The notes under the pieces: model-generated
The model's input: the letters and a program-made list of their open reading frames with translations, nothing else
Database searches by the model: none
Told to the model about the DNA's origin: nothing
Translations under genes and position numbers: made by a program
Assembly (NCBI RefSeq): GCF_058153355.1
Contig: NZ_CM177019.1
Direction: 5' to 3' (one strand)
DNA length: 64,000 nucleotides
Shown: piece after piece, positions 9,501 through 64,000 of the stretch
Layout of the letters: each line of letters starts with the position of its first letter
Position numbering within the stretch: position 1 is the stretch's first letter

Positions 9501-9680
9501 GTAGAGGGTGACCACCTGAATGGTTGGATAGTCCACTTCCGGCAGCGCCGAAACGGGCAGGGCGCGATAACCGATAATCCCGGCGAGTAAGATCGCCACC
9601 ATCAGCAGCGTGGTGGCAACAGGACGCATAATAAACAGGCGCGACGGACCGCCTGTGCTGCTCGGGGGTAACACCTGCAT
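6558..9680 (-). CDS. mdtB: RND multidrug efflux pump subunit MdtB
   Basis: 1040-aa RND-type ORF, paralogous to the adjacent MdtC ORF (shared motifs such as IMMAFFFT and [10 protein letters not shown]). Confidence 0.94.
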
Positions 9681-10927
9681 CAGGAGCGTGCTCCTTTTTT
9701 AGCGTATTCGCGGCTGGTGGCTTTCTCTTCCGAAGTGGTGGCGCTTTGAGCTTCAACCACTTCCACTTTCGCCCCTTCGGTCAGACGATCAATGCCATCC
9801 GTCACTACGCGGTCGCCTGCAGAAATACCTGCGCGGATCACCACTTTCTGACTGTCCTGAATGCCCGGCGTCACCAGATGTTTGCTGACCTTGTTTTCGC
9901 TATTCAGCACCCAGACAAAATGGCCTTCGTTGCCCATTTGCAGGGCGGCGGTGGGGATCACCACGGCGTTTTGTTCGGTGTCGACTAACATGCGCGCGTT
10001 AACAAACTGATTGGGAAACAGCGCATCATCCTGATTATTAAAGCGTGCTTTCACTTTAATCGTACCGGTAGTGGCATCGATTTGGTTATCGAGACTTAAC
10101 AGCGTGCCTTCACTTAATTTCTTCGAGTTGGTGCGATCCCAGGCTTCAACAACCAGCGGTTTTCCGGCTTTTTGCGCCTGTACTACGGTAGTGATATCGC
10201 TTTCCGGCAGGGTAAAGAGCAAATCGATAGGATGCGTCTGGGTGATCACCACAATTCCGGTGGTATCACCACTGGAGATTTGGTTACCAACATCAACCTG
10301 CTTGAGACCAACGCGACCATCGACTGGTGCGGTGATGCGGCTCCAGTCGAGTTGCAGCTGCGCACTGGCGACGCTCGCTTCATCAGCCTTAATGGTACCT
10401 TCGGTTTCACTGACCAGCGCCTGTTGGGCATCCAATTCCTGACGGGAGACGAGATTGGTTTTTGCCAGTTGCTGATAACGCGCTAAATCACGGCGGGCGT
10501 TGGCTAGTGTGGCTTTATCTTTTGCCAGTTGCCCCTGAGCTTGTGCTAATGCAACTTTGAACTGGCTGGGGTCAATTTCTGCCAGTAAATCGCCTGCTTT
10601 GACCTGCTGACCCTCCTGGAAATGTAATGCCATCAGTTGACCATCTACGCGACTGCGCACCGTAACGGTGTTAGCAGCGGTAATCGTACCAAGCCCGGTG
10701 AGGTAACGCGGAACCGCCTGTTCCACGGCAGTTGCTGCCTGAACCGGGGCCAATGGGCCGGAACGCATACCACGGCGGCCACCGGCTGGCGACTGCTGTG
10801 CTTGCTTCGTCGCACCTGGCGCTGCGCTCTGGGATTCATTGCGGCCTTGCCAGAACCAGAAAGCGGCGATGGCGGCGATAACCACCACGATTACGATTAC
10901 CCAACGGGATTTATAACTGCCTTTCAT
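9680..10927 (-). CDS. mdtA: Membrane fusion (periplasmic adaptor) protein MdtA
   Basis: Chosen start is the internal ATG at 10925-10927, giving 415 aa beginning [26 protein letters not shown] (N-terminal membrane anchor). The 464-aa ORF-track form is an in-frame upstream extension. Coiled-coil/lipoyl region typical of HlyD-family adaptors. Confidence 0.88.
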
Positions 10928-11159: not shown

Positions 11160-11297
11160 CGGGAAAGCCCCTCCCGAGGAAGGGGCCTTAAATAAGGAAA
11201 GGGTCATGATGAAGTGGATCATCATCGTGGTGCTCTTAGTCGTTAGCTACCCAGCTTACTAAGACTACCAGGGCGGGGGAAACCCCGCTCAACCCTC
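11160..11297 (-). ncRNA. sib: Predicted Sib-type antisense RNA (antitoxin) covering ibs copy 1; ends approximate
   Basis: Minus-strand promoter-like TTGACA (plus 11328-11333), 17-nt spacer, TATTTT (plus 11305-11310); minus-strand hairpin GCCCCTTCCTCGGGAGGGGC followed by a T-rich tract near 11165-11195 as terminator; transcript fully overlaps the ibs ORF. Confidence 0.45.
11206..11262 (+). CDS. ibs: Ibs-family type I toxin, 18 aa (MMKWIIIVVLLVVSYPAY), repeat copy 1
   Basis: Short hydrophobic ORF with an MMK start and PAY C-terminus, preceded by an AAGGAAAGGG Shine-Dalgarno-like sequence; matches the Ibs toxin pattern. Too short for the ORF track. Confidence 0.75.
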   Translation: MMKWIIIVVLLVVSYPAY

Positions 11298-11487
11298 ACT
11301 CCTGAAAATATGCCTTCACGGTCAGAATGTCAATCCGCAGGCTTTGCAGTCTGCGATCCTGCCAGCAAATATTCTTTGCGAGTCGTTACGCAATAATCAC
11401 AGATGAAACTATTTTATCTAAGCGTTAGCGATAGACTGCATTCAGGGCAAAAGGAGGTAGGCCGACGATTTCAGCGGGACGCTGAAA

Positions 11488-11625
11488 CGGGAAAGCCCCT
11501 CCCGAGGAAGGGGCCTTAAATAAGGAAAGGGTCATGATGAAGATACTCATCATCGTGGTGCTCTTAGTCATTAGCTTACCGGCTTACTAAGACTACCAGG
11601 GCGGGGGAAACCCCGCTCTACCCTC
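11488..11625 (-). ncRNA. sib: Predicted Sib-type antisense RNA covering ibs copy 2; ends approximate
   Basis: Same architecture as copy 1, shifted 328 bp; -10 element is TACTTT. Confidence 0.42.
11534..11590 (+). CDS. ibs: Ibs-family type I toxin, 18 aa (MMKILIIVVLLVISLPAY), repeat copy 2
   Basis: Same features as copy 1, exactly 328 bp downstream. Confidence 0.75.
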   Translation: MMKILIIVVLLVISLPAY

Positions 11626-11815
11626 ACTCCTGAAAGTATGCCTTCACAATCAGATTGTCAATCCGCAGGCTTTGTAGTCTGCGATCCTGCCAGCAAATAT
11701 TCTTTGCGAGACGTTACGCAATAATCACATGTGAAACTATTTTATCTGCAAGTTAGCGATAGACTGCTTGCATGGCGAAAGGAGGTAGGCCGCCGATTTC
11801 AGCGGGACGCTGAAA

Positions 11816-34591: not shown

Positions 34592-35783
34592 CTACCTGTT
34601 GTTGCCGCTGATCTACCTGCTGGTTAACGTCAAAATCGCCCAGCTTGGCGAAAGTTTCCCCATCACCATCGTCACTTTTTTACCTGTCTTGTTACTGCTG
34701 TTTTTAGAGCGCATCAGCGTTAAAAAATTGATGATTGCCTTAGGGATTGGTGCGGGACTCACGGCGTTTAACTATCTGTTTGGTCAGTCGTTGGATGCCA
34801 GTAAATACGTCACTTCAACCATGCTGTTTGTCTATATTGTGATCATTATTGGCATGGTGTGGAGTATTCGCTTTAAAACGATTTCGCCACACAACCATCG
34901 CAAGATATTACGTTTCTTTTATCTGGTGGTCGGGTTGGTGGTGGCGCTGGCGGCGGTGGAGATGGCGCAAATTATCCTCACCGGCGGCAGCAGTATTATG
35001 GAGTCGATTTCCAAATATCTGATTTACAGCAACAGCTATGTACTGAATTTCATTAAATTCGGCGGCAAGCGCACGACAGCACTTTATTTCGAACCGGCAT
35101 TTTTCGCTCTGGCATTAATCTCAATTTGGCTCAGCATCAAACAGTTTGGTATCAAAACGCCTAAAACCGATGCTATGATTCTCGCAGGGATAATATTATC
35201 CGGATCGTTTTCAGGGGTTATGACCTTTATCCTGTTTTATTTGCTGGAGTGGGCATTTCAATATCTGAATAAAGAGGCGATTAAGAAAAAGTTACCGTTG
35301 GCATTGATTTCTCTGGCTGTATTCCTGGTTGGTGTGGTAATCGCGTTTCCTTATATTTCCACCCGTCTGGGCGATTTAGGTACGGAAGGATCGTCATCGT
35401 ATTATCGTATTGTCGGTCCGCTGGTGATGGTCGGTTATTCTTTGACCCATATTGACGGTGTAGTCAGATTTGGCTCACTTTATGAATATGTCGCATCATT
35501 CGGAATATTTAACGGTGCGGATGTCGGAAAAACCATAGACAATGGTTTGTATCTGCTGATTATTTATTTTTCCTGGTTCGCGGTGTTTTTATCGCTGTGG
35601 TACATGGGGAAAGTGATAAAAATGATGATCAACGCTTTTGGTGATAACCGCAATTTTCGCGTGCAATTATATCTTTTTACTCCGGTATCGCTGTTTTTTA
35701 CCGGTTCGATATTTAGCCCGGAATATGCATTTTTAATCGTCTGTCCGTTTATTTTGCGAAAAGCGTTAAATATTACGAGGTAA
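34566..35783 (+). CDS. wcaD: Colanic acid polymerase WcaD (Wzy-like integral membrane protein)
   Basis: Start at the internal ATG 34566 ([22 protein letters not shown]...), giving 405 aa; strongly hydrophobic multi-TM protein. Confidence 0.85.
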
Positions 35784-35793
35784 GAATAAGAAC

Positions 35794-36540
35794 ATGTTGC
35801 TTAGCATAATCACTGTCGCGTTTCGTAACCTCGAAGGGATAGTCAAAACACATGCCTCGCTGGCGCATCTGGCGCAGGCGGACGATATCAGCTTCGAATG
35901 GATTGTTGTCGATGGCGGTTCCAACGACGGTACCCGTGAGTATCTGGAAAATCTCAATGGTATCTATAACCTACGCTTTGTCAGCGAGCCAGATAACGGT
36001 ATCTACGACGCCATGAACAAGGGCATTGCGATGGCACAAGGCAAGTTCGCGTTGTTTCTCAACTCGGGCGATATTTTTCATCAGGATGCCGCAAATTTTG
36101 TCCGTAAGTTAAAAATGCAAAAAGATAACATGATGATCACCGGCGATGCGCTGCTGGATTTTGGCGACGGGCATAAAATTAAGCGTAGTGCTAAACCGGG
36201 CTGGTATATTTATCACAGCCTGCCCGCCAGTCATCAGGCGATATTTTTCCCGGTATCCGGTTTGAAAAAATGGCGTTATGACCTGGAATATAAAGTTTCT
36301 TCTGATTACGCGCTGGCAGCTAAAATGTATAAAGCAGGTTATGCATTTAAAAAACTCAATGGCCTGGTGTCTGAATTTTCCATGGGTGGGGTATCAACCA
36401 CCAATAATATGGAATTGTGTGCTGACGCGAAAAAAGTCCAACGGCAGATATTACATGTGCCTGGCTTCTGGGCAGAATTATCCTGGCATTTACGCCAGCG
36501 TACTACCTCAAAGACGAAAGCCTTATATAACAAAAGCTGA
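35794..36540 (+). CDS. wcaE: Colanic acid glycosyltransferase WcaE (GT2)
   Basis: 248-aa ORF; GT2 N-terminus [10 protein letters not shown]...[10 protein letters not shown]. Confidence 0.88.
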
Positions 36541-47305: not shown

Positions 47306-48586
47306 ATGAAATTACTTATTCTGGGCAACCACACTTGCGGCAATCGTGGCGACAGCGCCATCCTGCGCGGCTTACTTGATGCCATCAACATTCTCAATCC
47401 ACACGCCGAAGTGGATGTGATGAGCCGCTATCCGGTCAGTTCTTCCTGGCTGCTCAACCGCCCGGTAATGGGCGATCCGCTGTTCCTGCAAATGAAACAA
47501 CACAACAGCGCAGCGGGCGTTGTCGGGCGCGTTAAAAAAGTCCTCCGTCGCCGCTACCAGCATCAGGTACTGCTCTCGCGCGTCACCGACACTGGCAAGT
47601 TGCGTAATATCGCCATCGCCCAGGGATTCACTGACTTCGTGCGCCTGCTGTCAGGTTACGACGCCATTATTCAGGTCGGCGGATCGTTTTTTGTCGATCT
47701 CTACGGCGTGCCACAGTTTGAACATGCACTTTGCACGTTTATGGCGAAAAAGCCGCTGTTTATGATTGGTCACAGCGTTGGCCCGTTCCAGGATGAGCAA
47801 TTTAACCAACTGGCGAACTATGTCTTTGGTCGCTGTGACGCGCTGATCCTGCGCGAATCGGTCAGCCTTGATCTGATGAAACGCAGCAATATCACCACTG
47901 CAAAAGTTGAACATGGCGTCGATACCGCGTGGCTGGTCGATCACCACACAGAAGACTTCACCGCCAGCTATGCCGTTCAACACTGGCTGGACGTTGCCGC
48001 ACAACAGAAAACGGTAGCCATTACCCTGCGCGAACTGGCACCGTTCGACAAACGTCTCGGCACCACTCAGCAAGCGTATGAAAAAGCCTTTGCCGGGGTG
48101 GTCAATCGCATTCTCGACGAAGGGTATCAGGTGATTGCGCTCTCCACCTGTACGGGCATCGACAGCTATAACAAAGACGACCGCATGGTGGCGCTCAATC
48201 TGCGCCAGCACATCAGCGATCCTGCCCGTTATCACGTGGTGATGGATGAACTCAACGATCTGGAAATGGGCAAAATTCTCGGTGCCTGTGAACTCACCGT
48301 CGGTACGCGCCTGCACTCCGCCATTATCTCAATGAACTTTGCCACCCCGGCGATTGCCATCAACTATGAACATAAATCCGCCGGGATCATGCAGCAGCTG
48401 GGGCTGCCAGAGATGGCAATTGATATCCGTCATTTATTAGACGGCAGCCTGCAAGCGATGGTTGCGGATACCTTAGGCCAACTTCCGGCGCTGAACGCAC
48501 GACTTAATGAAGCTGTCAGTCGTGAGCGTCATACAGGAATGCAGATGGTGCAATCTGTGCTTGAACGCATCGGGGAGGTGAAATGA
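47306..48586 (+). CDS. wcaK: Colanic acid pyruvyl transferase WcaK
   Basis: 426-aa ORF MKLLILGNHTCGNRGDSAILRGLLDAI..., polysaccharide pyruvyl transferase family. Confidence 0.9.
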   Translation: MKLLILGNHTCGNRGDSAILRGLLDAINILNPHAEVDVMSRYPVSSSWLLNRPVMGDPLFLQMKQHNSAAGVVGRVKKVLRRRYQHQVLLSRVTDTGKLRNIAIAQGFTDFVRLLSGYDAIIQVGGSFFVDLYGVPQFEHALCTFMAKKPLFMIGHSVGPFQDEQFNQLANYVFGRCDALILRESVSLDLMKRSNITTAKVEHGVDTAWLVDHHTEDFTASYAVQHWLDVAAQQKTVAITLRELAPFDKRLGTTQQAYEKAFAGVVNRILDEGYQVIALSTCTGIDSYNKDDRMVALNLRQHISDPARYHVVMDELNDLEMGKILGACELTVGTRLHSAIISMNFATPAIAINYEHKSAGIMQQLGLPEMAIDIRHLLDGSLQAMVADTLGQLPALNARLNEAVSRERHTGMQMVQSVLERIGEVK

Positions 48587-51365: not shown

Positions 51366-52361
51366 ATGAACGATAACGTTTTGCTCATAGGAGCTTCCGG
51401 ATTCGTAGGAACCCGACTACTTGAAACGGCAATTGCTGACTTTAATATCAAGAACCTGGACAAACAGCAGAGCCACTTTTATCCAGAAATCACACAGATT
51501 GGCGATGTTCGTGATCAACAGGCACTCGACCAGGCGTTAGCCGGTTTTGACACTGTTGTGCTACTGGCAGCGGAACACCGCGATGACGTCAGCCCTACTT
51601 CTCTCTATTATGATGTCAATGTTCAGGGTACCCGCAATGTGCTGGCGGCCATGGAAAAAAATGGCGTTAAAAATATCATCTTTACCAGTTCCGTTGCTGT
51701 TTATGGTTTGAACAAACACAACCCTGACGAAAACCATCCACACGACCCTTTCAACCACTACGGCAAAAGTAAGTGGCAGGCAGAGGAAGTGCTGCGTGAA
51801 TGGTATAACAAAGCACCAACAGAACGTTCATTAACCATCATCCGTCCTACCGTTATCTTCGGTGAACGCAACCGCGGTAACGTCTATAACTTGCTGAAAC
51901 AGATCGCTGGCGGCAAGTTTATGATGGTGGGCGCAGGGACTAACTATAAGTCCATGGCTTATGTTGGAAACATTGTTGAGTTTATCAAGTACAAACTGAA
52001 GAATGTTGCCGCAGGTTATGAGGTTTATAACTACGTTGATAAGCCAGACCTGAACATGAACCAGTTGGTTGCTGAAGTTGAACAAAGCCTGAACAAAAAG
52101 ATCCCTTCTATGCACTTGCCTTACCCACTAGGAATGCTGGGTGGATATTGCTTTGATATCCTGAGCAAAATTACGGGCAAAAAATACGCTGTCAGCTCAG
52201 TGCGCGTGAAAAAATTCTGCGCAACAACACAGTTTGACGCAACGAAAGTGCATTCTTCAGGTTTTGTGGCACCGTATACGCTGTCGCAAGGTCTGGATCG
52301 AACTCTGCAGTATGAATTCGTCCATGCCAAAAAAGACGACATAACGTTTGTTTCTGAGTAA
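51366..52361 (+). CDS. gne: NAD-dependent sugar nucleotide epimerase, probably UDP-GlcNAc 4-epimerase (Gne-like)
   Basis: 331-aa ORF; Rossmann motif LIGASGFVG; sits between wcaM and galF, where gne lies in several E. coli serogroups with GalNAc-containing O antigens. Family call is solid; substrate is inferred. Confidence 0.6.
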   Translation: MNDNVLLIGASGFVGTRLLETAIADFNIKNLDKQQSHFYPEITQIGDVRDQQALDQALAGFDTVVLLAAEHRDDVSPTSLYYDVNVQGTRNVLAAMEKNGVKNIIFTSSVAVYGLNKHNPDENHPHDPFNHYGKSKWQAEEVLREWYNKAPTERSLTIIRPTVIFGERNRGNVYNLLKQIAGGKFMMVGAGTNYKSMAYVGNIVEFIKYKLKNVAAGYEVYNYVDKPDLNMNQLVAEVEQSLNKKIPSMHLPYPLGMLGGYCFDILSKITGKKYAVSSVRVKKFCATTQFDATKVHSSGFVAPYTLSQGLDRTLQYEFVHAKKDDITFVSE

Positions 52362-52603: not shown

Positions 52604-53497
52604 ATGACGAATTTAAAAGCAGTTATACCGGTAGCAGGTCTTGGGATGCATATGTTGCCTGCCACTAAGGCGATTCCCAAAGAGATGCTACCGATCGTCG
52701 ACAAGCCAATGATTCAGTACATTGTTGACGAGATTGTGGCTGCAGGGATCAAAGAAATCCTCCTGGTAACTCACGCGTCCAAGAACGCGGTCGAAAACCA
52801 CTTCGACACCTCTTATGAATTAGAATCTCTCCTTGAGCAGCGCGTGAAGCGTCAACTGTTGGCGGAAGTACAATCTATCTGTCCGCCGGGCGTGACCATT
52901 ATGAACGTGCGTCAGGGTGAACCTTTAGGTTTAGGCCACTCCATCTTATGTGCGCGACCTGCCATTGGTGACAACCCATTTATCGTGGTACTGCCAGACG
53001 TAGTGATCGACGACGCCAGCGCCGACCCGCTGCGCTACAACCTTGCTGCCATGATTGCGCGCTTCAACGAAACGGGCCGTAGCCAGGTGCTGGCAAAACG
53101 TATGCCGGGTGACCTCTCTGAATACTCCGTCATCCAGACCAAAGAACCGCTGGACCGTGAAGGTAAAGTCAGCCGCATTGTTGAATTTATCGAAAAACCG
53201 GATCAGCCGCAGACGCTGGACTCAGACATCATGGCCGTAGGTCGCTATGTGCTTTCTGCCGATATTTGGCCGGAACTAGAACGCACTCAGCCTGGTGCAT
53301 GGGGGCGTATTCAGCTGACTGATGCTATTGCCGAACTGGCGAAAAAACAGTCCGTTGATGCCATGCTGATGACTGGAGACAGCTACGACTGCGGTAAAAA
53401 AATGGGCTATATGCAGGCGTTTGTGAAGTACGGACTGCGTAACCTGAAAGAAGGGGCGAAGTTCCGCAAAGGTATTGAGAGGTTGTTGAATGATTAA
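52604..53497 (+). CDS. galF: UTP-glucose-1-phosphate uridylyltransferase regulatory paralog GalF
   Basis: 297-aa ORF; nucleotidyltransferase N-terminus [26 protein letters not shown]; canonical 5' flank of the O-antigen locus. Confidence 0.92.
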
Positions 53498-53746
53498 AAA
53501 CATGAACAAATATAACGGTAAATAAGAGAAATTGTAACGGCAGTGAGGATTTGCGGCGAAGCTCAAACGTGGCGAATATCCCTGTCGTTATTTATTAATA
53601 AATCATCGTACTAACAATGGAATAAAAAAGTGCCTTGTTTTAAGTTTTACAGGATATTCCTTGTTTCTGGAGGAGATTGATAAGACAATCAGCATCTGAA
53701 TTTATCAGAACTTGTGTGTCTTGCTGATTACATTGTTATATTCATG

Positions 53747-53785
53747 TAGTGTACTGGTAGCTGTGGAGCCAGGGGCGGTAGCGTG
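53747..53785 (+). promoter_or_regulatory. JUMPstart element with ops motif (GGCGGTAGCGTG at 53774-53785) heading the O-antigen cluster
   Basis: TAGTGTACTGGTAGCTGTGGAGCCAGGGGCGGTAGCGTG, ~60 bp upstream of wzx; near-identical core to the copy upstream of wza. Confidence 0.78.
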
Positions 53786-53842
53786 CATTAATATTCACAA
53801 TATATTCTTTTAAATGTAAGCAGAATTAATCGAACCTAAATA

Positions 53843-55357
53843 ATGTCACGTAACAAAATAATCATAAAGAATACTATGTTTTTGGCAACAAGAACCTTAG
53901 TTTCTTTAAGTGTTTCATTTTACACAACAAGAATAGTTATACAACAGTTGGGGGCGGCAGACTATGGCTTATTTAATATCATTTATGGAGTTGTAACATT
54001 TTTTACATTCGTAGTCACCGCGATGAATGATTCTGTACAGCGTTATATTGCAATAGGTGTTGGTTCACAAAAAATATCGGTTATTAGAGATGCTGTAAAA
54101 AATAGTATGTTTATATTTGTTATATCTGCTTTCATATTGGCAGTATGTCTTCTTTTGGCAAGGGGGGTGATCATACATAATATTTTAAATATACCTAAAG
54201 ATTCTATTGAAAATGCAAGTGTGTTATATTTGGTTGCAGTATTTTCAATAACCATACTTATAATTCAGACGCCACTTAATGCGATGGTGTTAGCATACGA
54301 GAAAATGTCATTTTACGCATACATGATGATATTTGAAATGGTAGCTAAAATGAGTATGGCTTTGTTACTAACTTTACTGGAAAAAGATAAGGTCATTGTA
54401 TATTCAATACTTTTAGGTTCTATTTCTTTTTTTAACTTGTTGGTTTATTTATGCTACTGCTTGATATGTTTTAAAAAATCAATGTTTGGTGGGAGAATAA
54501 AATTTAGAGTGCTGAAAGAAATTTCAACTTTTTCATTTTGGAATATATTTGGTAATTTCTCTTACATGTGCAGAGTTCAGGGAGTGAACATTGTAATTAA
54601 TATGTTTTACGCTATAGCCGTGAATGCAGCATATGCGATTTCGATTACTGTTTTAAATGCAATTAATACACTTACGCAATCATTAATTACAGCATTAAGG
54701 CCTCAAATATTTAAATCATATGGCGAATGTGATTTAAAAAGATATAATCATCTAGTTCTCTTTGGTTCAAAATATACATTTTCAATATTGTTTCTGTTAA
54801 GTAGCCCTGTAATTCTATGTGCGGATGAGTTGTTAAAGATATGGCTTGATATTGTACCAGATTATACAGTTGAATTTGTGAGGTTGGTCATTGTTGTGGC
54901 TTTTATTGATAGTTTTTCATATAGCATGATTGCTGGTATTCAGGCTACGGGTAGGATTAAAACATATCAACTAGTTGTTAGTTTAATTGTCCTAATTAAT
55001 TTGCCGTTAACCTTTATTTTGTTTAAGGCAGGAAATAATGTTTTAAGTATGTTTTATCCATTTATTGTTACTGCCATTATCAATCAAGGTTTAAGGTTGT
55101 ATTTTATCTATATCAATGCAGGTTTTGATTATAAGAAGTATTTCACTGTTGTGATCTATCCTTGCTTGTTAGCTGTATGCTTATCGTTAGTGACAGATAT
55201 TTCAATTAAAAAAATGCTTCCATTTAACAGTGTTATTGATGTTTTAATTGTGTGTATTTTTATTTTTTCATTCAATACAATAATTTTTTATTGGGTTGTA
55301 GTTTCTAAAAAGGAAAAAAAATGGTTATTAGAAACCCTGAAAAGAAAAGTGAAATAA
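53843..55357 (+). CDS. wzx: O-antigen flippase Wzx (polysaccharide biosynthesis / MOP family)
   Basis: 504-aa AT-rich ORF, almost entirely hydrophobic with ~12 predicted TM helices; first gene after galF and JUMPstart. Confidence 0.7.
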   Translation: MSRNKIIIKNTMFLATRTLVSLSVSFYTTRIVIQQLGAADYGLFNIIYGVVTFFTFVVTAMNDSVQRYIAIGVGSQKISVIRDAVKNSMFIFVISAFILAVCLLLARGVIIHNILNIPKDSIENASVLYLVAVFSITILIIQTPLNAMVLAYEKMSFYAYMMIFEMVAKMSMALLLTLLEKDKVIVYSILLGSISFFNLLVYLCYCLICFKKSMFGGRIKFRVLKEISTFSFWNIFGNFSYMCRVQGVNIVINMFYAIAVNAAYAISITVLNAINTLTQSLITALRPQIFKSYGECDLKRYNHLVLFGSKYTFSILFLLSSPVILCADELLKIWLDIVPDYTVEFVRLVIVVAFIDSFSYSMIAGIQATGRIKTYQLVVSLIVLINLPLTFILFKAGNNVLSMFYPFIVTAIINQGLRLYFIYINAGFDYKKYFTVVIYPCLLAVCLSLVTDISIKKMLPFNSVIDVLIVCIFIFSFNTIIFYWVVVSKKEKKWLLETLKRKVK

Positions 55358-56703
55358 CAATAAAAGATGTTATAGACAATGAACTCTGTACTGGTTGTGG
55401 AGTTTGTATTTCGGAAGATAGTAGCAAAACCTCCTTTATGAAATGGAATTCTGAAGGTTTTTATGAGCCATGTTTCTCTCCTGTATCAACATTATTCAAT
55501 ATGCAGCGTGTTTGTCCCTTTAACTTAAGTAGGGATACATTAGTGAATGAGGATGAACTTGCGCATGAGTTTTTTGATGGTAAGGGATATTTAGATTCTG
55601 AGGTTGGGTTTTATAAAAAAATATATGTGGGTTATTCTAAACATTTTAGAGAGACTTCATCCTCCGGTGGTATAGCTACATATGTATTTGAACAACTTCT
55701 TAGACGTAAGTATGTTGATGCTCTATTTATAGTTAGGGAGCTTGGTGGTTCATATGGATATCAAGTCTTCGATAATCCAGAACATATTAAGGATATGTCT
55801 AAAACAAGATATTATCCTGTAACGCTAGAAAAGTTATTTGATAATATTTATAAGCTTAATGGTAGAGTGGCCGTTTCAGGAGTGGCATGTTTTATTAAAG
55901 CCATTAGGCTCAAACAACATTACCATCCAGAACTGAAAGAGAAAATACCATTCCTTGTTGGTATAATTTGTGGAGGACTCAAAAGTCGATATTACACTGA
56001 TTATTTATCACAGTCTGCTGGTTGTGTCAGTGAGTACCAAAATGCTGAGTATCGAGTGAAAAAGAAAGATAGTCATGCTCTTGACTATCGTTTCACATGT
56101 GTTGAGAAATCAAATAATATAATTCATTCTGTTGATATGCAAAGAATGGGGGATATGTGGGGTTCAGGGCTATTTAAGGCAAACGCATGTGACTATTGTG
56201 ATGATGTTACAACCGAACTCGCAGACATATCATTGGGTGATGCCTGGATTTCGCCATACAATATGGATGGAGCTGGTAATAATGTAGTTGTATGTCGCTC
56301 CACCACAGCTCATGAAATTATTTTATCTGGGATTGAGAAAAAAGACTTAGAATTAACGGAACTCGAATTAGAGCAGTTGAAATTGTCACAACAAGGAAGT
56401 TTTAACCACAGGCATAAAGGATTATTATATAGAATAAAAAATGCAGAGAAAAATAATCGCTTAGTGCCTGTTAAGAGGAAAAGATTCTTACGCTCTATAT
56501 CTTTTTTATTAAAGTTAATTCAAAAACAACGATCAGTTACAAGGAGAAAAAGCATAGAGATATGGATGGAAACTCAAAATTCAGCAACTTTCGATAAGAA
56601 AATGAAGGGATATTTATTCACGTTGCGTTGGTTAACAGTGGTCAATAGGAAATTAAGTCGGATGTTCAAGATTGTTTCTCTAAATAGAATGGGTAAAAAA
56701 TGA
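55321..56703 (+). CDS. Fe-S protein resembling coenzyme F420 hydrogenase/dehydrogenase beta subunit (FrhB-like); probable partner of the adjacent pyruvyl transferase
   Basis: 460-aa ORF with ferredoxin-like CTGCGVC motif near the N-terminus and further Cys residues (CDYCDD); overlaps the wzx end by 37 bp, so the true start may lie downstream. Confidence 0.5.
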   Translation: MVIRNPEKKSEITIKDVIDNELCTGCGVCISEDSSKTSFMKWNSEGFYEPCFSPVSTLFNMQRVCPFNLSRDTLVNEDELAHEFFDGKGYLDSEVGFYKKIYVGYSKHFRETSSSGGIATYVFEQLLRRKYVDALFIVRELGGSYGYQVFDNPEHIKDMSKTRYYPVTLEKLFDNIYKLNGRVAVSGVACFIKAIRLKQHYHPELKEKIPFLVGIICGGLKSRYYTDYLSQSAGCVSEYQNAEYRVKKKDSHALDYRFTCVEKSNNIIHSVDMQRMGDMWGSGLFKANACDYCDDVTTELADISLGDAWISPYNMDGAGNNVVVCRSTTAHEIILSGIEKKDLELTELELEQLKLSQQGSFNHRHKGLLYRIKNAEKNNRLVPVKRKRFLRSISFLLKLIQKQRSVTRRKSIEIWMETQNSATFDKKMKGYLFTLRWLTVVNRKLSRMFKIVSLNRMGKK

Positions 56704-57836
56704 AAGTTGCAATATTAACTCAACCATTACATACGAATTATGGTGGCACATTACAAGCCTATGCATTACAAAAAGTCTTGATTAATTTGGGACATGAACC
56801 AGAGACTATTAATTATAGGTCGAAAATTAAGAGGCCACTATTTATCCGTGTTGTGTTGTCAAAAATTAAAAGGATAGTATTATGCCGAAAAATCACATTT
56901 GATTTTACAACACAAGATAGAATTAATATTAGGAAGCATCATCAATCTTTCATTGATACAAGATTAAACTATTCAGAGGAGATTAACGGTACTGAGGGGT
57001 TGAGAGATTATATTTTAAAAAATAATTACGGTGCTGTAATAATAGGTAGTGATCAGACATGGAGACCAATATATTCGCCTAGAATAGATTCATTTTTTCT
57101 CGATTTTTTAAGTGATGTAAACGATATAAAAAAAATGGCATATGCAGCATCTTTTGGTACTGATAAATGGGAGTTCACGGAGTCACAAACTAATTTATTT
57201 AAATTGTTACTTTCAAAATTTGACTATGTTTCAGTTAGAGAGTCCTCAGGAGTCAAATTATGTAGTGAAAAATTTGGTTTGAAAGCAGAGTTGGTTTTAG
57301 ATCCGACATTGCTATTGACATTCGAAGATTATACTCATTTATTAGACAATGACTATATTAATCTTCATAAGGGAAAGGTGTTTAGTTATGTACTTGATGA
57401 GAATTACGACAAAAAAAACTTTATAGACACAGTAGCAAGTACTCTCCGCACAACGTCATTTTATACTTACCCTAAAAAAATCACTAAAGATGAATATGTG
57501 ATTAGAAATTATTCCGAGTATGAATATCCGCCAATAGAATATTGGATTTCTTCGTTTAAGGCCGCTGAATTTATTGTAACAGATTCATTTCATGGAACAG
57601 TATTTTCTATTATTTTTAACAAACCCTTCATCGCCATTGCAAATGAAGAGAGAGGAAAGGCTAGATTTACGTCACTATTGGAAATGTTTGGTCTTGAAAG
57701 ACGACTTGTGAGTAATTTAGATGATGTTGATTTAAAGCTTGTAAATGAAAAAATTAACTATGGCCCCATAAATGAAAAAATTGCTTATTTTAGAGAAGAG
57801 TGCCTTAAAAAGTTGCAGTTAATGCTAATAAAATAA
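56700..57836 (+). CDS. Polysaccharide pyruvyl transferase (WcaK/CsaB family)
   Basis: 378-aa ORF; N-terminus MKVAILTQPLHTNYGGTLQAYAL parallels the WcaK N-terminus MKLLILGNHTCGNRGDSAIL in this same window; 4-bp overlap with the upstream gene. Confidence 0.55.
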   Translation: MKVAILTQPLHTNYGGTLQAYALQKVLINLGHEPETINYRSKIKRPLFIRVVLSKIKRIVLCRKITFDFTTQDRINIRKHHQSFIDTRLNYSEEINGTEGLRDYILKNNYGAVIIGSDQTWRPIYSPRIDSFFLDFLSDVNDIKKMAYAASFGTDKWEFTESQTNLFKLLLSKFDYVSVRESSGVKLCSEKFGLKAELVLDPTLLLTFEDYTHLLDNDYINLHKGKVFSYVLDENYDKKNFIDTVASTLRTTSFYTYPKKITKDEYVIRNYSEYEYPPIEYWISSFKAAEFIVTDSFHGTVFSIIFNKPFIAIANEERGKARFTSLLEMFGLERRLVSNLDDVDLKLVNEKINYGPINEKIAYFREECLKKLQLMLIK

Positions 57837-57882
57837 TCAGATTATGTATGTCTCTCTACAATTAAAATATGAATGTTGATCG

Positions 57883-58887
57883 ATGAAGAATTGTAAAGTA
57901 TCTGTAATTATTCCGGTCTATAATGCGGAAAAATATATACAACGTTGTATTTTAAGCTTATTAAAGCAGACATTAGATGATGTTGAAATTATCATCATTG
58001 ATGATGGTTCTACTGATAATTCACTTTCTATAATAAAAGAAACTGTTGCATTGCATACTGCTAGTAGAGCTCGCCAAAAGAGAATCAATATAATCTCTCG
58101 AGAAAACAAAGGAGTTGCCTATACACGAAGTCAGGGATTGAGACTTTCGCAGGGGGAATTTATCATTCATTTTGATAGTGATGATTGGGCAAAATCCAAT
58201 ATGCTGGAGGAAATGTATAAGACAATTGTTTCCAATAATGCAGACATGGTTATATGCGATTATTTTTTAGTGAAGAATAATAAAGAAATACTTATAAAAC
58301 AGAGAGTGGAGTATGAGCCAAAGAAATGTATTAGATATCTACTGACTGGTGAGCTAGAAGGATTTACATGGAACAAACTAATTAGAAAAAAATATATCGA
58401 TAAAAATAAAATTGATTTTGTTAATAAAATTACTTATATGGAGGATTTTTTGTTCATATTAAGTGTGTTACTACACAATCCTAAAATTATTTTTCAGGAT
58501 TGTGCATATTATTATTATCAAAAAAGCAATCCTAAATCTCTAACTAGCCATGCTAGTGTGGATAGGCTTTCTGAAATGATTAAAGCCGTAAGTGAAATAG
58601 AAAAGAAGATAAATAAATATAATTTACAAAAGTATCTGAATAACGAGTTTCAATTGTTTAAGTTAAAACAAAAAATTTGGTTTATATCTATAAGTAAGTT
58701 AAATGTTAATGATAATGTATGGAATCTCTTTCCTGAAACAAATCCATTTATATCAAAGGTAAATGTGCTTTTTTATTATAAAATAGTGCTTTTTCTTGAT
58801 AGTATTAAACTGCGTTTTTTTTCAAATAAGATCATTTATCTCATTGGATTGGTGCAGGCTTTATTACAAGAAAGGAAAGAGAAGTGA
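57883..58887 (+). CDS. Glycosyltransferase family 2
   Basis: 334-aa ORF; VSVIIPVYNAEKYI, IIIIDDGSTDNS, later DSDD (DXD). Confidence 0.72.
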   Translation: MKNCKVSVIIPVYNAEKYIQRCILSLLKQTLDDVEIIIIDDGSTDNSLSIIKETVALHTASRARQKRINIISRENKGVAYTRSQGLRLSQGEFIIHFDSDDWAKSNMLEEMYKTIVSNNADMVICDYFLVKNNKEILIKQRVEYEPKKCIRYLLTGELEGFTWNKLIRKKYIDKNKIDFVNKITYMEDFLFILSVLLHNPKIIFQDCAYYYYQKSNPKSLTSHASVDRLSEMIKAVSEIEKKINKYNLQKYLNNEFQLFKLKQKIWFISISKLNVNDNVWNLFPETNPFISKVNVLFYYKIVLFLDSIKLRFFSNKIIYLIGLVQALLQERKEK

Positions 58888-59672
58888 TACCAAAAATAAT
58901 TCATTACTGCTGGTTCGGTCGCTCTCCATTGTCGGAATTAACAAAGCAGTGCATTGCAAGCTGGGAGAAATATTGTCCTGAATATAAAATCATAAGATGG
59001 GATGAAAATAATGTCGATTTGAATTCTTGTTCTTTTGTTAGACAAGCTTATAAAGAAAAAAAATGGGCGTTCGTTTCTGATTATGTAAGGCTTAAAGTGG
59101 TTAATGAATATGGCGGTATCTATCTTGATACAGATGTTGAATTAATAAAGCCATTAGATGATTTGTTAATATATCCTGCATATATAGGCTTTGAAATTAA
59201 CAAGGAATGGTATGTAAATTCTGGTTTGGGGTTCGGTTCTGTTAATAATAATCCGGTTTTAGAATCATTAATTATGGAGTATGAAAATATTAATTTTGTA
59301 AATGAGGATGGGACTCTAAATATAACGCCGTGCCCCATAAGAGAAACAAAAGCATTAACAAAAATAGGTTTAATTCCTGATGGTCAATGTCAATCTTTTG
59401 ATAATATAGTGATTTTTTCTGCAGATTATTTTTGTCCTGTATCTATAACAGGTGAGAGAAATTTTTCTGATAAAACATATTCAATACATCATTACGATGC
59501 TAGTTGGTTTTCTGAGCAAAAGAGAAAAGGCCTGCAACGTAAAAAGAGATTTATAAAACTATTCGGCAACCTAATAGGCACATATATTAATAAACCTTTT
59601 ATTTTTGTAGATGAATGTCGCGAGTTCGGATTAGTTAAAGCAATCAAGAATATGCGTTCCAATTTTCCTTAA
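58884..59672 (+). CDS. Glycosyltransferase with DXD sugar-binding region (Gly_transf_sug / Och1-like family)
   Basis: 262-aa ORF; N-terminus IPKIIHYCWFGRSPL, then YLDTDVELIKPLDD; characteristic of this small retaining glycosyltransferase family. Confidence 0.65.
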   Translation: MIPKIIHYCWFGRSPLSELTKQCIASWEKYCPEYKIIRWDENNVDLNSCSFVRQAYKEKKWAFVSDYVRLKVVNEYGGIYLDTDVELIKPLDDLLIYPAYIGFEINKEWYVNSGLGFGSVNNNPVLESLIMEYENINFVNEDGTLNITPCPIRETKALTKIGLIPDGQCQSFDNIVIFSADYFCPVSITGERNFSDKTYSIHHYDASWFSEQKRKGLQRKKRFIKLFGNLIGTYINKPFIFVDECREFGLVKAIKNMRSNFP

Positions 59673-59745
59673 TTTTTAGTGTTAAGGAATAAGTTTCGTT
59701 AAAATACTTTATTCATTTAATTAATAAAGGTTTAATGGTGATTAG

Positions 59746-60849
59746 ATGTACTTTCTTTTGTTCTTCTCAATATTTTATTTTGTATACGTAATCTTAATAG
59801 GAACATTATGTCATAACTATAAAGCCCTTTTGATTTTTTCACTAATCCCTCTGACAATAGTGTCAGGTATAAGATATAATGTCGGCTTTGATTTTATGTC
59901 ATATGTTGATTACTTCAATCAACTCAAATATTCAAATGATATATATCTAGATTCTACCTTTAAGTATATAAGCTACTTTACCTATTATATAGGAGGTAAC
60001 GAACAGATTTTGTTTCTGATATATGCGGTTTTTTATTCGGTTGCACTTTATTTTTTAATAAAACTGGTATTGGAAAATTATATAACGGAAATAAATAATT
60101 TTTATACTATTGGACTTGTGTTATCATTTTATTCGTTTTATTTTTTATTATCATTTAATCAAATTAGGGCTGTATTATCAGCTCTAATACTATGTTATGG
60201 GCTATTAAAAAATAAAATAGATTTTTCTTTTATAATAACAATTACATTAAGTATTCTTTTTCACTCTGCAGCAATGTTCATTTTACCTCTTTATTTTGTC
60301 CTAAGAAAAATAAATGTAACAGTTCTGTTGGTGATATTCCCTTTTTTGGTTGTTGCTTCATTCTTTAATATTTTTTCAGATATTGTGAGATTCATTCTGA
60401 CATTGCTAAATAGTCGTTTTTTAACATATTTTAACTCTGAATATTTTGTTCCAAGGACGGGAATGGAAAAAATGTATAGTATGATCTCAATGATTATTGT
60501 TTTGGGAATGGTTGTTTGTTTGTCTAAATTATTACCTAAAAAGTTTGATTTAATGATAAAGTTTGTTATTCTTTTTGTTCTACTTAGAGCGATGTCAATT
60601 GATATATTGATTTTTGCTAGGTTTAGTGATTTTCTTAAACCAATGGCTATAATTCTTATATTTACCGCTGTTTATTTTTCTTCGAATAAAGTGCGACCTA
60701 GAATTATCCTTCCTTTTTATTTAATTATGACATTGTTTCTCTGTATTTTTAATATAATAATCGGATCGAATATAACTAAGGGGAACTATTATACTTATGG
60801 TTATAACATTTGCTTTTTTGGCAATAAATGTATAGATAAATTTTATTAG
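59746..60849 (+). CDS. wzy: Candidate O-antigen polymerase Wzy (EpsG-like polytopic membrane protein)
   Basis: 367-aa, extremely AT-rich, ~10 predicted TM segments with no soluble domain; placement among the glycosyltransferases is typical of wzy. Assignment is by architecture only. Confidence 0.5.
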   Translation: MYFLLFFSIFYFVYVILIGTLCHNYKALLIFSLIPLTIVSGIRYNVGFDFMSYVDYFNQLKYSNDIYLDSTFKYISYFTYYIGGNEQILFLIYAVFYSVALYFLIKLVLENYITEINNFYTIGLVLSFYSFYFLLSFNQIRAVLSALILCYGLLKNKIDFSFIITITLSILFHSAAMFILPLYFVLRKINVTVLLVIFPFLVVASFFNIFSDIVRFILTLLNSRFLTYFNSEYFVPRTGMEKMYSMISMIIVLGMVVCLSKLLPKKFDLMIKFVILFVLLRAMSIDILIFARFSDFLKPMAIILIFTAVYFSSNKVRPRIILPFYLIMTLFLCIFNIIIGSNITKGNYYTYGYNICFFGNKCIDKFY

Positions 60850-60859
60850 TAATTGTCAT

Positions 60860-61927
60860 TTGATACTTCTGGTATTTATGGAAAAATATATGAATAACTT
60901 TTCTTGTAAAGAACCCCCTTCATTTATTGAAAATAAAATTATATTATCAATTATTCTTCCTGTATATAACGTATCAGAGTATTTAATTGAGTGCCTAAAC
61001 AGTTTGCTGTTAGACGTTCATGAACGTTATCTTAATAGATGTGAAGTAATTGTGGTTGATGATGGTTCAACTGATAATTCATTTGAATTAATGAGAGAGT
61101 ATTCTTTGAAATATCCTGAATCTATTAAGATTTATTCGAAATTCAATGGTGGTCTCTCAGATGCAAGAAACTATGGATTATTAAAATCTTCAGGTAAATA
61201 TATTTCTTTTGTTGATTCAGATGATGTTGTTAATAGAGGTTTTATAAAGGAAATCATCAATTTCATTGATGCCTATGATTTTGATATATTGTCATTTGAC
61301 TTCATGAAGTTTTTTAATAATAATGATGCTCTTATTCTTTCACAAATAGATGAATTCTCCAAAATGGCAGAAAGAGTAGATTCGGAGTTCTACAAGTCCA
61401 AGCCTGTTTTTGCTTGGAATAAAGTTTATCGACGTTCTCTTTTCGACAATGAAGTATTTCCTAAGGGGTGGTATTATGAAGATGTTGCATTAATTCCGTT
61501 ATTATTAGATAGAGCAAAAGTTTTATACCATATTAATAGCGTTTGTTATTTTTATAGACAGAGACAAGGAGCAATCACTTTTTTTTATGACAATAAATAT
61601 CTTGATATTTTAAAAGGAGTGTCTTTTTTATATGACAGGTCACAATCTTCATTCATTAAAACGATAATTATAAATCAGTTTTTTACTTTAACCTTACTAT
61701 CTTTAAGATTGCCGACTGATAATTATTTCATGAATATGAGGGGGATTATTGATACCTATTGTGAAAAATTTGACTTGGATTCCTTTGAGCCTAAACTAAT
61801 ATTAAAACACATTCCTTTTTTATTGCTTAAAAAATTGAAGTCGCTGTGTGTTTATCCACTGTATTTATTTAAACCTGCAGTTTTTTTACATAAACAAATT
61901 AAACATTTTAGAGGAAAACTAAAGTGA
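60860..61927 (+). CDS. Glycosyltransferase family 2 (start codon uncertain)
   Basis: 355-aa ORF; ILSIILPVYNVSEYL, VIVVDDGSTDNS, FVDSDD. The true start may be the internal ATG at MNNFSC. Confidence 0.7.
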   Translation: MILLVFMEKYMNNFSCKEPPSFIENKIILSIILPVYNVSEYLIECLNSLLLDVHERYLNRCEVIVVDDGSTDNSFELMREYSLKYPESIKIYSKFNGGLSDARNYGLLKSSGKYISFVDSDDVVNRGFIKEIINFIDAYDFDILSFDFMKFFNNNDALILSQIDEFSKMAERVDSEFYKSKPVFAWNKVYRRSLFDNEVFPKGWYYEDVALIPLLLDRAKVLYHINSVCYFYRQRQGAITFFYDNKYLDILKGVSFLYDRSQSSFIKTIIINQFFTLTLLSLRLPTDNYFMNMRGIIDTYCEKFDLDSFEPKLILKHIPFLLLKKLKSLCVYPLYLFKPAVFLHKQIKHFRGKLK

Positions 61928-63033
61928 AATATGATTATATAATTATAGGTAGCGGTCTTTTTGGGAGTGTGTTTGCACATGAATTAGGGAAAATGAAAAA
62001 AAAGGTCAAGGTTATTGAGCGTCGTGATCATGTTGGTGGTAATGTATATTGTGAGAATATTGAAGGAATTAATGTTCATAAATATGGCGCACATATATTC
62101 CATACTAACGATAAAGAAATATGGGATTATGTAAATCAATTTGTAGAGTTTAATAGATATACAAATTCACCATTAGCTTTTTCAAAAGGTAAAATTTATA
62201 ATTTACCTTTTAACATGAATACCTTTAATCAACTCTGGGGGGCTATTACTCCTCAACATGCGAAAGAAATTATTAAAAAGCAAAGCGGTGAAATAAGTGG
62301 AAATAAACCAAGGAATCTTGAAGAGCAAGCTATTTCTTTGGTGGGACGAGATATTTATAATTGTTTGATTAAGGAGTACACTGAGAAACAATGGGGACGA
62401 CCTTGCACTGAATTGCCATCATTTATTATAAAACGACTCCCTGTTAGGTTTACATACGATAATAACTATTTTAATGACCAGTATCAAGGAATACCAGTCG
62501 GTGGTTACAATAAATTAATCGATGCATTATTAAATGGTATTGAAGTTCAAACATGCACTGACTATTTTGAAGAGAAGAAATATTGGGATTCTATTGCAAA
62601 GAAAATTATTTATACAGGGCCTATTGATAAGTTTTATTGCTATAAATTTGGAGCTTTGGATTATCGATCATTAAAATTTGAGCATGAATTACTGAATGTC
62701 GATAATTTTCAAGGGAATGCTGTTGTAAATTATATAGACAAAAAATTCCCATTCACTCGTATAATAGAACATAAATTTTTTGAATTTGGTGAACAGCATA
62801 ATACTCTCATTACTCGAGAGTACCCAAAAGAATTCGAAGAAGGCGATGAGTATTACTATCCTGTCAATGATGAAAAAAATATGCAAATCTATAAAATGTA
62901 TTATAATCTTTCTAAACAGGAAAGTAATGTGATTTTTGGTGGACGTCTTGCGGAATATAAATATTATGACATGCATCAAGTTATCAAATCAGCTTTAAAT
63001 GCATTCCGAAAAGAGGTACGTTTAGGTGAATAA
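61924..63033 (+). CDS. glf: UDP-galactopyranose mutase
   Basis: 369-aa ORF; FAD-binding YDYIIIGSGLFGSVFA, then KYGAHIFHTNDK...GGRLAEYKYYDMHQVI; very similar to the E. coli K-12 Glf sequence as I remember it. Confidence 0.85.
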   Translation: MKYDYIIIGSGLFGSVFAHELGKMKKKVKVIERRDHVGGNVYCENIEGINVHKYGAHIFHTNDKEIWDYVNQFVEFNRYTNSPLAFSKGKIYNLPFNMNTFNQLWGAITPQHAKEIIKKQSGEISGNKPRNLEEQAISLVGRDIYNCLIKEYTEKQWGRPCTELPSFIIKRLPVRFTYDNNYFNDQYQGIPVGGYNKLIDALLNGIEVQTCTDYFEEKKYWDSIAKKIIYTGPIDKFYCYKFGALDYRSLKFEHELLNVDNFQGNAVVNYIDKKFPFTRIIEHKFFEFGEQHNTLITREYPKEFEEGDEYYYPVNDEKNMQIYKMYYNLSKQESNVIFGGRLAEYKYYDMHQVIKSALNAFRKEVRLGE

Positions 63034-63940
63034 AGAAGTAATCGCAGTTATTGTAACCTATAATAGAAAAGCATTATTGCTGAAAGTTATAGATGCTGTT
63101 ATTAACCAAAGTTATCCACTAAAAAAAATATTGATAATAGATAATAATAGTACTGATGGTACGGAGATGTTTATTTCAAATAGGCTCTCTGACGTGGTGA
63201 AGTATAAAAATACGGGGGATAATTTAGGGGGGGCTGGCGGGTTTTATAGAGGATTCATAGAGGCGGAAAAATATGGCTATGATTATCTTTGGTTAATGGA
63301 CGATGATTTTATGCCTACAGTGAATTGTCTTGAAATATTAATATCAAATAGCCCTGATGGTATTGTCCAACCTGTTAGATATAACTTGGATGAAACTTGT
63401 GCAGAGCTTTCTCCATTAACTTATGATTTATCTAACCCATTTAAGTTAAACCCTAAAGGTACACCATTAAAAAATTACTTAAATACAATTGGTAATAAAT
63501 CTGCGAAGGTAGATATTGAAGCTATTCCATTTGAAGGTCCATTGATTTCACGAAAGGTTGTTGAAAAAATAGGCTATCCAGAGCCTAAGTTTTTTATTTT
63601 TTGTGATGACATTGAATACGCTATTAAAGCTAAAAGAAAGGGGATTCCCATCCAGTGCAATCTTAAAGCCAAGGCATACCGCCTTTTGGTCAACAATCAA
63701 GGTAATGATCTTCTTTCCTGGAAAGGATATTTTATGCTTCGAAATCTTTTCTACCTGCATAAAACGTATGGGACCAATTTCCTTGTTAGACAAAAACCTA
63801 TCGTATTGGGATTAGGATATGCATTGTCGTGTGTATTGAAATGCAATTTTTCTCAACTTCCCGTTATATGGCGTGCTTTTTGGGATTCATCTACGTTAAG
63901 AAATACCGAAAAATTCAGGCCCGAAATGAGAAGTAAATAA
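63026..63940 (+). CDS. Glycosyltransferase family 2, plausibly a galactofuranosyltransferase
   Basis: 304-aa ORF; VIAVIVTYNRKALL, IIDNNSTDGT, LMDDDF; sits directly after glf. Acceptor and donor specificity are inferred from context only. Confidence 0.62.
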   Translation: MNKEVIAVIVTYNRKALLLKVIDAVINQSYPLKKILIIDNNSTDGTEMFISNRLSDVVKYKNTGDNLGGAGGFYRGFIEAEKYGYDYLWLMDDDFMPTVNCLEILISNSPDGIVQPVRYNLDETCAELSPLTYDLSNPFKLNPKGTPLKNYLNTIGNKSAKVDIEAIPFEGPLISRKVVEKIGYPEPKFFIFCDDIEYAIKAKRKGIPIQCNLKAKAYRLLVNNQGNDLLSWKGYFMLRNLFYLHKTYGTNFLVRQKPIVLGLGYALSCVLKCNFSQLPVIWRAFWDSSTLRNTEKFRPEMRSK

Positions 63941-64000
63941 TTTATTATTATGTTTTTATTAATTAATGTCGATTTTTACTAAAATTCTTAACACGATATT

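Follow-up and report, generated by a model that had tools for sequence, protein, structure and literature searches.

The window analysed here is a 64,000-nucleotide stretch of contig NZ_CM177019.1 (RefSeq assembly GCF_058153355.1), and its subject is a run of nine consecutive plus-strand open reading frames (ORFs; positions 53843-63940) downstream of galF. These are best explained, with high confidence, as the complete galF-gnd O-antigen cluster of the Escherichia coli O124/O164 group in its O124 form, the products of which would assemble a five-sugar O unit and decorate it with a lactyl ether by the scheme proposed below. Both the serogroup and its gene cluster are already known, having been published for O124. 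Within this known cluster, two adjacent genes, one for a polysaccharide pyruvyl transferase family protein and one for an FrhB-like iron-sulfur (Fe-S) protein, are candidates for the enzymes that form the lactyl ether.

When positions 53500-64000 were compared by megablast with 5,426 complete E. coli genomes, full-length matches of at least 99.8% identity were obtained in five of them (VL7S7, WEC, TUM18780, TUM18530, and DETEC-C31), all collinear with the window over 10,501 nt and all carrying a flippase and a polymerase that RefSeq names "O124/O164 family". The closest strain was VL7S7 (99.96%; 4 mismatches in 10,501 nt), the other four being 99.8% identical, with 16-18 differences counted against WEC and TUM18780. 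Wzx (504 amino acids) was 100% identical to WP_023308089.1 ("O124/O164 family O-antigen flippase"), as was Wzy (367 amino acids) to WP_000273730.1 ("O124/O164 family O-antigen polymerase"). Since both genes exceed 97% identity to a known serogroup, no novelty is claimed for the serogroup, which the first-pass annotation, made from the letters of the window alone, had left unassigned. Eight of the nine cluster proteins were identical to those of VL7S7, the ninth, a glycosyltransferase of family GT32, differing by one residue (E141K). Exact copies of the cluster proteins are encoded on tens to hundreds of contigs of E. coli and Shigella in public databases and include UniProt B5L449-B5L462, the original O124/O164 and Shigella dysenteriae type 3 submissions (Liu et al, 2008). 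The O124/S. dysenteriae type 3 cluster has the same nine genes in the same galF-gnd order, with the modification genes intact; the differences amount to a few single-nucleotide polymorphisms relative to database genomes, and the window alleles of Wzx and the pyruvyl transferase are the E. coli variants, not those of S. dysenteriae. Several of the public entries EAA1047425.1-EAA1047433.1, annotated as O124/O164, are identical to window proteins despite carrying the organism name "Escherichia coli O28ac", which may reflect a serotyping or labelling discrepancy between two serogroups associated with enteroinvasive E. coli.

The cluster and the elements directly upstream of it are made up as follows (Und-PP, undecaprenyl diphosphate; GlcNAc, N-acetylglucosamine; Galf, galactofuranose).

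51366-52361, plus strand: gnu, Und-PP-GlcNAc 4-epimerase; product identical to VL7S7 WP_000999466.1, annotated N-acetyl-alpha-D-glucosaminyl-diphospho-undecaprenol 4-epimerase.
52604-53497, plus strand: galF; TIGR01105, 686.6 bits (cutoff 659).
53747-53785, plus strand: JUMPstart element; Rfam RF01707, 54.7 bits (gathering score 35).
53774-53781, plus strand: ops element GGCGGTAG within JUMPstart; exact match.
53843-55357, plus strand: wzx, O124/O164 O-unit flippase; 100% identity to WP_023308089.1, weak MatE Pfam match.
55321-56703, plus strand: FrhB-like Fe-S/flavin oxidoreductase, probably WfeO; FrhB_FdhB_N and FrhB_FdhB_C.
56700-57836, plus strand: polysaccharide pyruvyl transferase family gene, probably wfeP, intact; PF04230, 3e-39.
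57883-58887, plus strand: GT2 glycosyltransferase (GT2a), probably WfeQ; GT2 matches.
58884-59672, plus strand: GT32 DXD glycosyltransferase, probably WfeR; PF04488 (Gly_transf_sug), 2.8e-15.
59746-60849, plus strand: wzy, O124/O164 O-antigen polymerase; 100% identity to WP_000273730.1, EpsG family.
60890-61927, plus strand: GT2 glycosyltransferase WfeS (GT2b); UniProt B5L455 "WfeS", GT2 matches.
61924-63033, plus strand: glf, UDP-galactopyranose mutase, which makes UDP-Galf; TIGR00031, 419.7 bits (cutoff 303.75; equivalog).
63026-63940, plus strand: GT2 glycosyltransferase (GT2c), probably WfeT, the final gene before gnd; best NCBIfam match GlfT1, 1e-25, below its cutoff.

The housekeeping gene galF was taken as the 5′ boundary of the cluster, and from the upstream colanic acid genes into the cluster, the GC content falls from ∼0.54 to 0.25-0.35. 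The nine ORFs were recovered with exactly the coordinates of the first-pass annotation, and its gene calls, the low GC content, galF, the epimerase gene upstream of it, and the JUMPstart/ops element were all corroborated by ORF analysis, profile searches, and Rfam. The same holds for its description of a Wzx/Wzy-type O-antigen cluster, both name-giving components of which are encoded in the window, with four glycosyltransferases (three of GT2 and one of GT32), and profile searches agreed with it in detecting no rml or other dTDP (deoxythymidine diphosphate)-sugar genes in the cluster. It was literally correct that gnd is not reached, but the cluster is not incomplete for that reason: in the near-identical genomes, gnd follows the last glycosyltransferase gene after 81 nt, corresponding to position 64022, and no gene lies between GT2c and gnd. 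Because gnd would thus start 22 nt past the window end without an intervening gene, the cluster is, as judged from these genomes, complete with nine genes and not truncated. The gene of the chain-length regulator, wzzB, is to be expected outside the window, since in WEC, one of the near-identical genomes, it follows gnd-ugd. The ORF of the seventh gene (WfeS) is open back to a TTG at 60860; the RefSeq protein (345 amino acids) starts from the ATG at 60890, which is probably the true start. With GT2b named WfeS in UniProt, sequential naming assigns WfeO to the FrhB-like protein and WfeP to the pyruvyl transferase, in agreement with the literature (PMC7685785).

The published O124 unit has the backbone →3)-D-Galp-(β1→6)-D-Galf-(β1→3)-D-GalpNAc-(β1→ (Gal, galactose, as pyranose, Galp, or furanose; GalNAc, N-acetylgalactosamine) and a side chain, D-GlcpLA-(β1→6)-D-Glcp, which is α1→4-linked to Gal (PMC7685785). 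GlcLA is glucolactilic acid, that is, 4-O-[(R)-1-carboxyethyl]-D-glucose (PMC10609480). This structure agrees with the earlier prediction of Galf and GalNAc in the O unit (PMC7685785). The origin of GalNAc had been sought in a gne-like gene; an epimerase gene is indeed present upstream of galF, but it does not encode the UDP-sugar epimerase Gne. It encodes Gnu, the epimerase for GlcNAc already bound to the lipid carrier, Und-PP-GlcNAc (PMC7685785). Starting from GalNAc, completion of the unit takes four transfers, three of them forming β-linkages and one forming an α-linkage, and the cluster has three inverting enzymes of GT2 and one retaining enzyme of GT32. Inversion by GT2 and retention by GT32 are the established stereochemistry of these CAZy families.

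On this basis, a tentative assignment of enzymes to linkages can be made. GT32 (WfeR) is the only glycosyltransferase of a retaining family, and the O unit has only one α-linkage, so that it would be the α-1,4 glucosyltransferase acting onto Gal. For GT2a (WfeQ), the stereochemistry of its family and its location beside the modification genes point to the β-1,6 glucosyltransferase adding the terminal side-chain glucose (Glc). GT2b (WfeS) would then be the Galp-(β1-6)-Galf transferase, and GT2c (WfeT) the galactofuranosyltransferase forming Galf-(β1-3)-GalNAc. The GT2b-glf-GT2c block recurs in E. coli SM107 with 49%, 80%, and 76% amino acid identity, respectively, again with gnu upstream, and this recurrence supports a role of the block in building the Gal-Galf-GalNAc trunk. 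The SM107 cluster (NZ_CP130667.1, 3600-10913) is a galF-gnd O-antigen cluster for which RefSeq gives no serogroup-specific wzx or wzy name; besides the upstream gnu, it carries a LipB/KpsS-family gene and has, at its 3′ end, a GT32-GT2-glf-GT block related to the O124 one, and wzzB of this strain is broken by an IS5.

O-unit synthesis would accordingly begin with Und-PP-GalNAc, the initiating sugar being supplied by WecA (encoded elsewhere) together with Gnu. Glf would provide UDP-Galf, and the three GT2 enzymes and the GT32 enzyme would add Galf, Galp, α-Glc, and β-Glc, resulting in a five-sugar unit, which Wzx would flip and Wzy would polymerise via GalNAc-(β1-3)-Gal. The JUMPstart/ops element would confer RfaH-dependent antitermination, and with it read-through of the operon.

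What this scheme leaves to be explained is the lactyl ether on the terminal Glc. A route via enolpyruvyl transfer needs a subsequent two-electron reduction, which makes the FrhB-like protein, as the sole oxidoreductase of the cluster, the candidate for this step. The enzyme of the PS_pyruv_trans family would transfer an enolpyruvyl group from phosphoenolpyruvate (PEP) to the terminal Glc, and the adjacent FrhB-like Fe-S flavoprotein would reduce the resulting enol ether to the 4-O-(1-carboxyethyl) lactyl ether. The proposed logic is that of MurA and MurB, where enolpyruvyl transfer from PEP is followed by flavin-dependent reduction to the D-lactyl ether of muramic acid. However, the transferase belongs to PF04230 and does not have the MurA/EPSP fold, the reductase would be an Fe-S protein of the FrhB family instead of one with the MurB FAD-binding fold, and the position modified is O-4 of Glc in place of O-3 of GlcNAc. 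Among the NCBIfam and Pfam matches of the pyruvyl transferase and the FrhB-like protein, there was neither a MurA nor a MurB family.

The FrhB-like protein matches PF04422 (1.3e-8) and PF04432 (7.7e-24) and has an N-terminal ferredoxin motif. Two sets of four cysteines are kept in at least 97% of 125 homologues and an SGG motif is conserved, which fits an Fe-S flavoprotein and also favours the start giving 460 amino acids over the GenBank annotation with 421. Its similarity to characterised relatives is distant: among solved structures, it matches only FrhB and Fsr chains, with E values from 5e-4 to 1e-2, and its score against the NCBIfam equivalog is 48 bits compared with a cutoff of 475. E. 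coli is not known to make F420, and the protein likely uses another electron donor.

The two genes travel together. In seven of seven informative loci, the FrhB-like gene and the pyruvyl transferase gene are adjacent (two distant FrhB-like homologues, on contigs too short to show their neighbours, are left out of this count). The order wzx, FrhB-like, pyruvyl transferase is kept in polysaccharide loci of Klebsiella oxytoca, Serratia marcescens, and Acinetobacter radioresistens, with amino acid identities of 35-51% for wzx, 55-60% for the FrhB-like protein, and 47-53% for the pyruvyl transferase (51%, 60%, and 53%, respectively, in the K. oxytoca locus L004). Two loci of more distant relationship and one E. 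coli plasmid show the same order, at times with a further gene in between. Furthermore, among the best 150 of 3,432 FrhB-like representatives (E ≤ 1e-3), 12 are natural fusions of the two proteins, with the pyruvyl transferase preceding the FrhB-like part (P0121-P0125, P0127-P0129, and P0136) or following it (P0170, P0232, and P0247); their hosts include Paracoccus litorisediminis and Gordonia. Some of the fusions, which are up to 1,520 amino acids long in total, have large extra N-terminal regions. The conserved module and the fusions support the proposed two-step route of enolpyruvyl transfer and reduction.

A comparable arrangement is known from Klebsiella capsules. Like the window, K66 (wcqF) and K22/K37 (wclZ) have a pyruvyl transferase gene beside one for an oxidoreductase, which is F420-hydrogenase-like in K66 and a nitroreductase in K22/K37, although these are capsule loci with other sugars, unlike the O124 O-antigen cluster. 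K22 and K37 presumably carry 4-O-(1-carboxyethyl)-glucuronic acid. Among 79 Klebsiella capsule types, an "F420 hydrogenase" gene occurs only in K66 and a nitroreductase gene only in K22 and K37, each of these redox genes being paired with a type-specific pyruvyl transferase, and K8, K22, K37, and K66 are the four types in which a gene for a pyruvyl transferase is present although the capsule lacks a pyruvate ketal (PMC4616057). For K66, the link to the absence of a ketal rests solely on the statement in that survey (PMC4616057).

Within E. coli, relatives of the pair were met on small plasmids (24-34 kb), namely pBDSF8-3_3 (NZ_JBTWTU010000003.1; 2739-5112 and 6641-10661), NZ_CP070932.1, and NZ_JBWDPM010000002.1. 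The first carries remnants of polysaccharide loci flanked by insertion sequences (IS), one comprising a nitroreductase fragment, a pyruvyl transferase, and a GT2, and also a flippase, an FrhB-like protein, and a pyruvyl transferase with ∼41-45% amino acid identity to the window proteins. In the other two, only a pyruvyl transferase, a GT2, and (in one plasmid) a nitroreductase lie under the matches. No chromosomal counterpart was found in the 5,426 E. coli genomes, and a search with the plasmid nitroreductase-pyruvyl transferase-GT2 remnant, aimed at chromosomal O clusters that have a serogroup name, matched only plasmids. A distant blastn search for diverged pairs in other serogroups with lactyl ethers (O58, O69, and O150) matched only O124/O164 genomes and the three small plasmids. 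Taken more broadly, FrhB-like and PS_pyruv_trans proteins may constitute a widespread lactyl-ether synthase of surface polysaccharides, not homologous to MurA/MurB, usually accompanied by a dedicated Wzx, sometimes fused, and with a nitroreductase replacing the FrhB-like protein in some loci (Klebsiella K22/K37 and the small E. coli plasmids); we give this generalisation an even chance of being correct.

Several points weigh against the overall interpretation. The equation of wfeP with the pyruvyl transferase ORF depends on sequential naming, anchored by WfeS being GT2b, and on the natural frameshift in database genomes. The RefSeq labels "O124/O164" do not split O124 from O164. Genes outside the window, namely wecA, waaL, and rfaH and possibly phage-encoded modification genes, contribute to the serological phenotype as well. 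A search of the open literature, with most subscription journals outside it, returned nothing on the enzymology of nonmuramic lactyl ethers or on the FrhB/pyruvyl transferase pairing beyond the Klebsiella capsule survey, and the two-step idea may well have been proposed earlier by others. Finally, a review describes the function as the making of UDP-GlcLA, which would place it at the level of the nucleotide sugar (PMC7685785).

Following that wording, both enzymes would convert UDP-Glc to UDP-GlcLA, from which a glycosyltransferase would then transfer the finished sugar; MurA and MurB, which act on a UDP-sugar, are a precedent for this order of events. This is a real though less probable possibility. 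The O unit of serogroup O164 is that of O124 with Glc replacing GlcLA, owing to a frameshift in wfeP (PMC7685785). As O164 still adds the terminal Glc, one glycosyltransferase would have to accept UDP-Glc as well as UDP-GlcLA. Moreover, those PS_pyruv_trans enzymes that have been studied work on glycans that are lipid-linked or already assembled, a point drawn partly from general background and partly from PMC6030368. Since O164 keeps its terminal Glc despite the broken transferase, it appears more likely that the lipid-linked unit is modified than that a UDP-GlcLA precursor is made.

The O164 cluster also has to be considered as the identity of the window itself, in which case the O unit would end in plain Glc without the lactyl ether. 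O124 and O164 share the same genes and the same backbone, their clusters are more than 99.4% identical, and typing by wzx and wzy cannot part them. What distinguishes O164 is its wfeP frameshift and, in the reference cluster, the presence of ISEc11 (PMC4379981). The sole indel among the window and its five relatives affects codon 132 of the pyruvyl transferase gene, where a run of T (57093-57098) comprises six T in the window, VL7S7, and WEC and five in TUM18780, TUM18530, and DETEC-C31. The shorter run causes a frameshift that ends the protein near residue 136, and the gene is annotated by RefSeq as two fragments. Loss of the pyruvyl transferase is thus linked to the O164 form. In the window, all nine ORFs are intact, the pyruvyl transferase (378 amino acids) and the FrhB-like protein (460 amino acids) being full length, and ISEc11 is absent from the cluster, as there is no insertion relative to the collinear genomes. 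Because the pyruvyl transferase gene is intact and ISEc11 is absent, we conclude that the predicted genotype is O124; the O164 form is improbable. In other public E. coli O124/O164 clusters, the FrhB-like gene is split by a frameshift after codon 100 (P0273 and P0274; EOA0765145.1/EOA0765144.1 and others, ∼30 contigs). Judged from these entries, this gene is independently inactivated in nature; the split variant, too, is absent from the window.

The first-pass annotation had predicted a pyruvate ketal, and it would be conceivable that the pyruvyl transferase adds this conventional substituent. The protein matches PF04230 strongly (i-Evalue 3.1e-39, model positions 1-279 of 280), characterised members of this family, WcaK and CsaB, form ketals, and ketals are acid-labile and were overlooked in older structural work (e.g., on S. 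dysenteriae type 10). However, the published O124 structure has the lactyl ether 4-O-(1-carboxyethyl)-glucose in the place where a ketal had been expected, and the substituent in O124 and S. dysenteriae type 3, re-investigation included, is a lactyl ether on Glc with no ketal (PMC7685785; PMC10609480). In addition, in O164 the lactyl group is missing along with a functional pyruvyl transferase gene, and the Klebsiella types in which a pyruvyl transferase occurs with a nitroreductase or an FrhB-like protein (K22, K37, and K66) are listed without pyruvate ketals. WcaK itself is encoded in the window, in the colanic acid cluster (47306-48586). Its C-terminal region, with a conserved His-containing motif, aligns with that of the pyruvyl transferase, but identity is only 22% over 169 residues; WcaK has no redox partner next to it and forms a ketal. 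Formation of a ketal in place of the lactyl ether is therefore very improbable. A new or unassigned O serogroup can practically be dismissed as an explanation of the cluster, given Wzx and Wzy identical to the curated O124/O164 family, 10.5 kb with at least 99.8% identity to five genomes, and a gene set that fits the published O124/O164 structure.

As to the organisation of the operon, neighbouring genes overlap at several junctions: wzx and the FrhB-like gene by 37 nt (55321-55357), the FrhB-like and pyruvyl transferase genes by 4 nt (56700-56703), GT2a and GT32 by 4 nt (58884-58887), GT2b and glf by 4 nt (61924-61927), and glf and GT2c by 8 nt (63026-63033). These overlaps suggest translational coupling in three sub-blocks of the predicted operon. 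The JUMPstart element of the window begins with T (53747), where the Rfam consensus and each of the three related genomes that were compared have C; the ops octamer is intact. Further exact plus-strand copies of the octamer (GGCGGTAG) are located at 27424, 28011, and 40685, that at 28011 being ∼190 nt upstream of wza, the expected site of the JUMPstart element of the colanic acid operon.

The chromosome around the cluster is less closely matched than the cluster itself. Positions 1-25000 (baeS/mdtABCD, yegI, dgcE, udk, dcd, and asmA) reached at best 97.9% identity among the same complete genomes and 90-95% to most of them. The contrast between a backbone with at most 97.9% identity and an O cluster with at least 99.8% is consistent with lateral acquisition of the cluster by a lineage outside the collection; it also fits the known high diversity around the O-antigen locus. 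In VL7S7, the closest relative by O cluster, the colanic acid gene wcaE is interrupted by an IS1, an IS421 lies close to ibsA, and dgcE carries a frameshift. The window is without the IS1 in wcaE (∼36081-36088, corresponding to VL7S7 35312-36081), and the ibs region differs around 11286-11640. In this pairwise comparison with VL7S7, which was not a dedicated IS scan of the whole window, no IS was found in the colanic acid region. This and the E. coli variants of Wzx and the pyruvyl transferase make E. coli a more likely source of the window than S. dysenteriae type 3.

O124 is a classical serogroup of enteroinvasive E. coli that shares its O antigen with S. dysenteriae type 3, and both the structure of this antigen and its gene cluster have been in the literature for years. 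The practical value of the present analysis lies in the correct in silico serotype (O124, not O164) and in the corrected chemistry of the substituent; the run of six or five T at 57093-57098 can separate O124 from O164 in silico, where typing by wzx and wzy cannot. Lactyl ethers occur in many bacterial polysaccharides, and the fusion and co-occurrence data point to a specific, testable pair of enzymes for their formation. Natural frameshift mutants of both the FrhB-like and the pyruvyl transferase gene exist in public genomes, so that, if the proposal is true, the O124/O164 pair and the strains with a naturally split FrhB-like gene would be ready-made mutants. A redox partner beside a pyruvyl transferase would then predict an ether over a ketal from the sequence alone.

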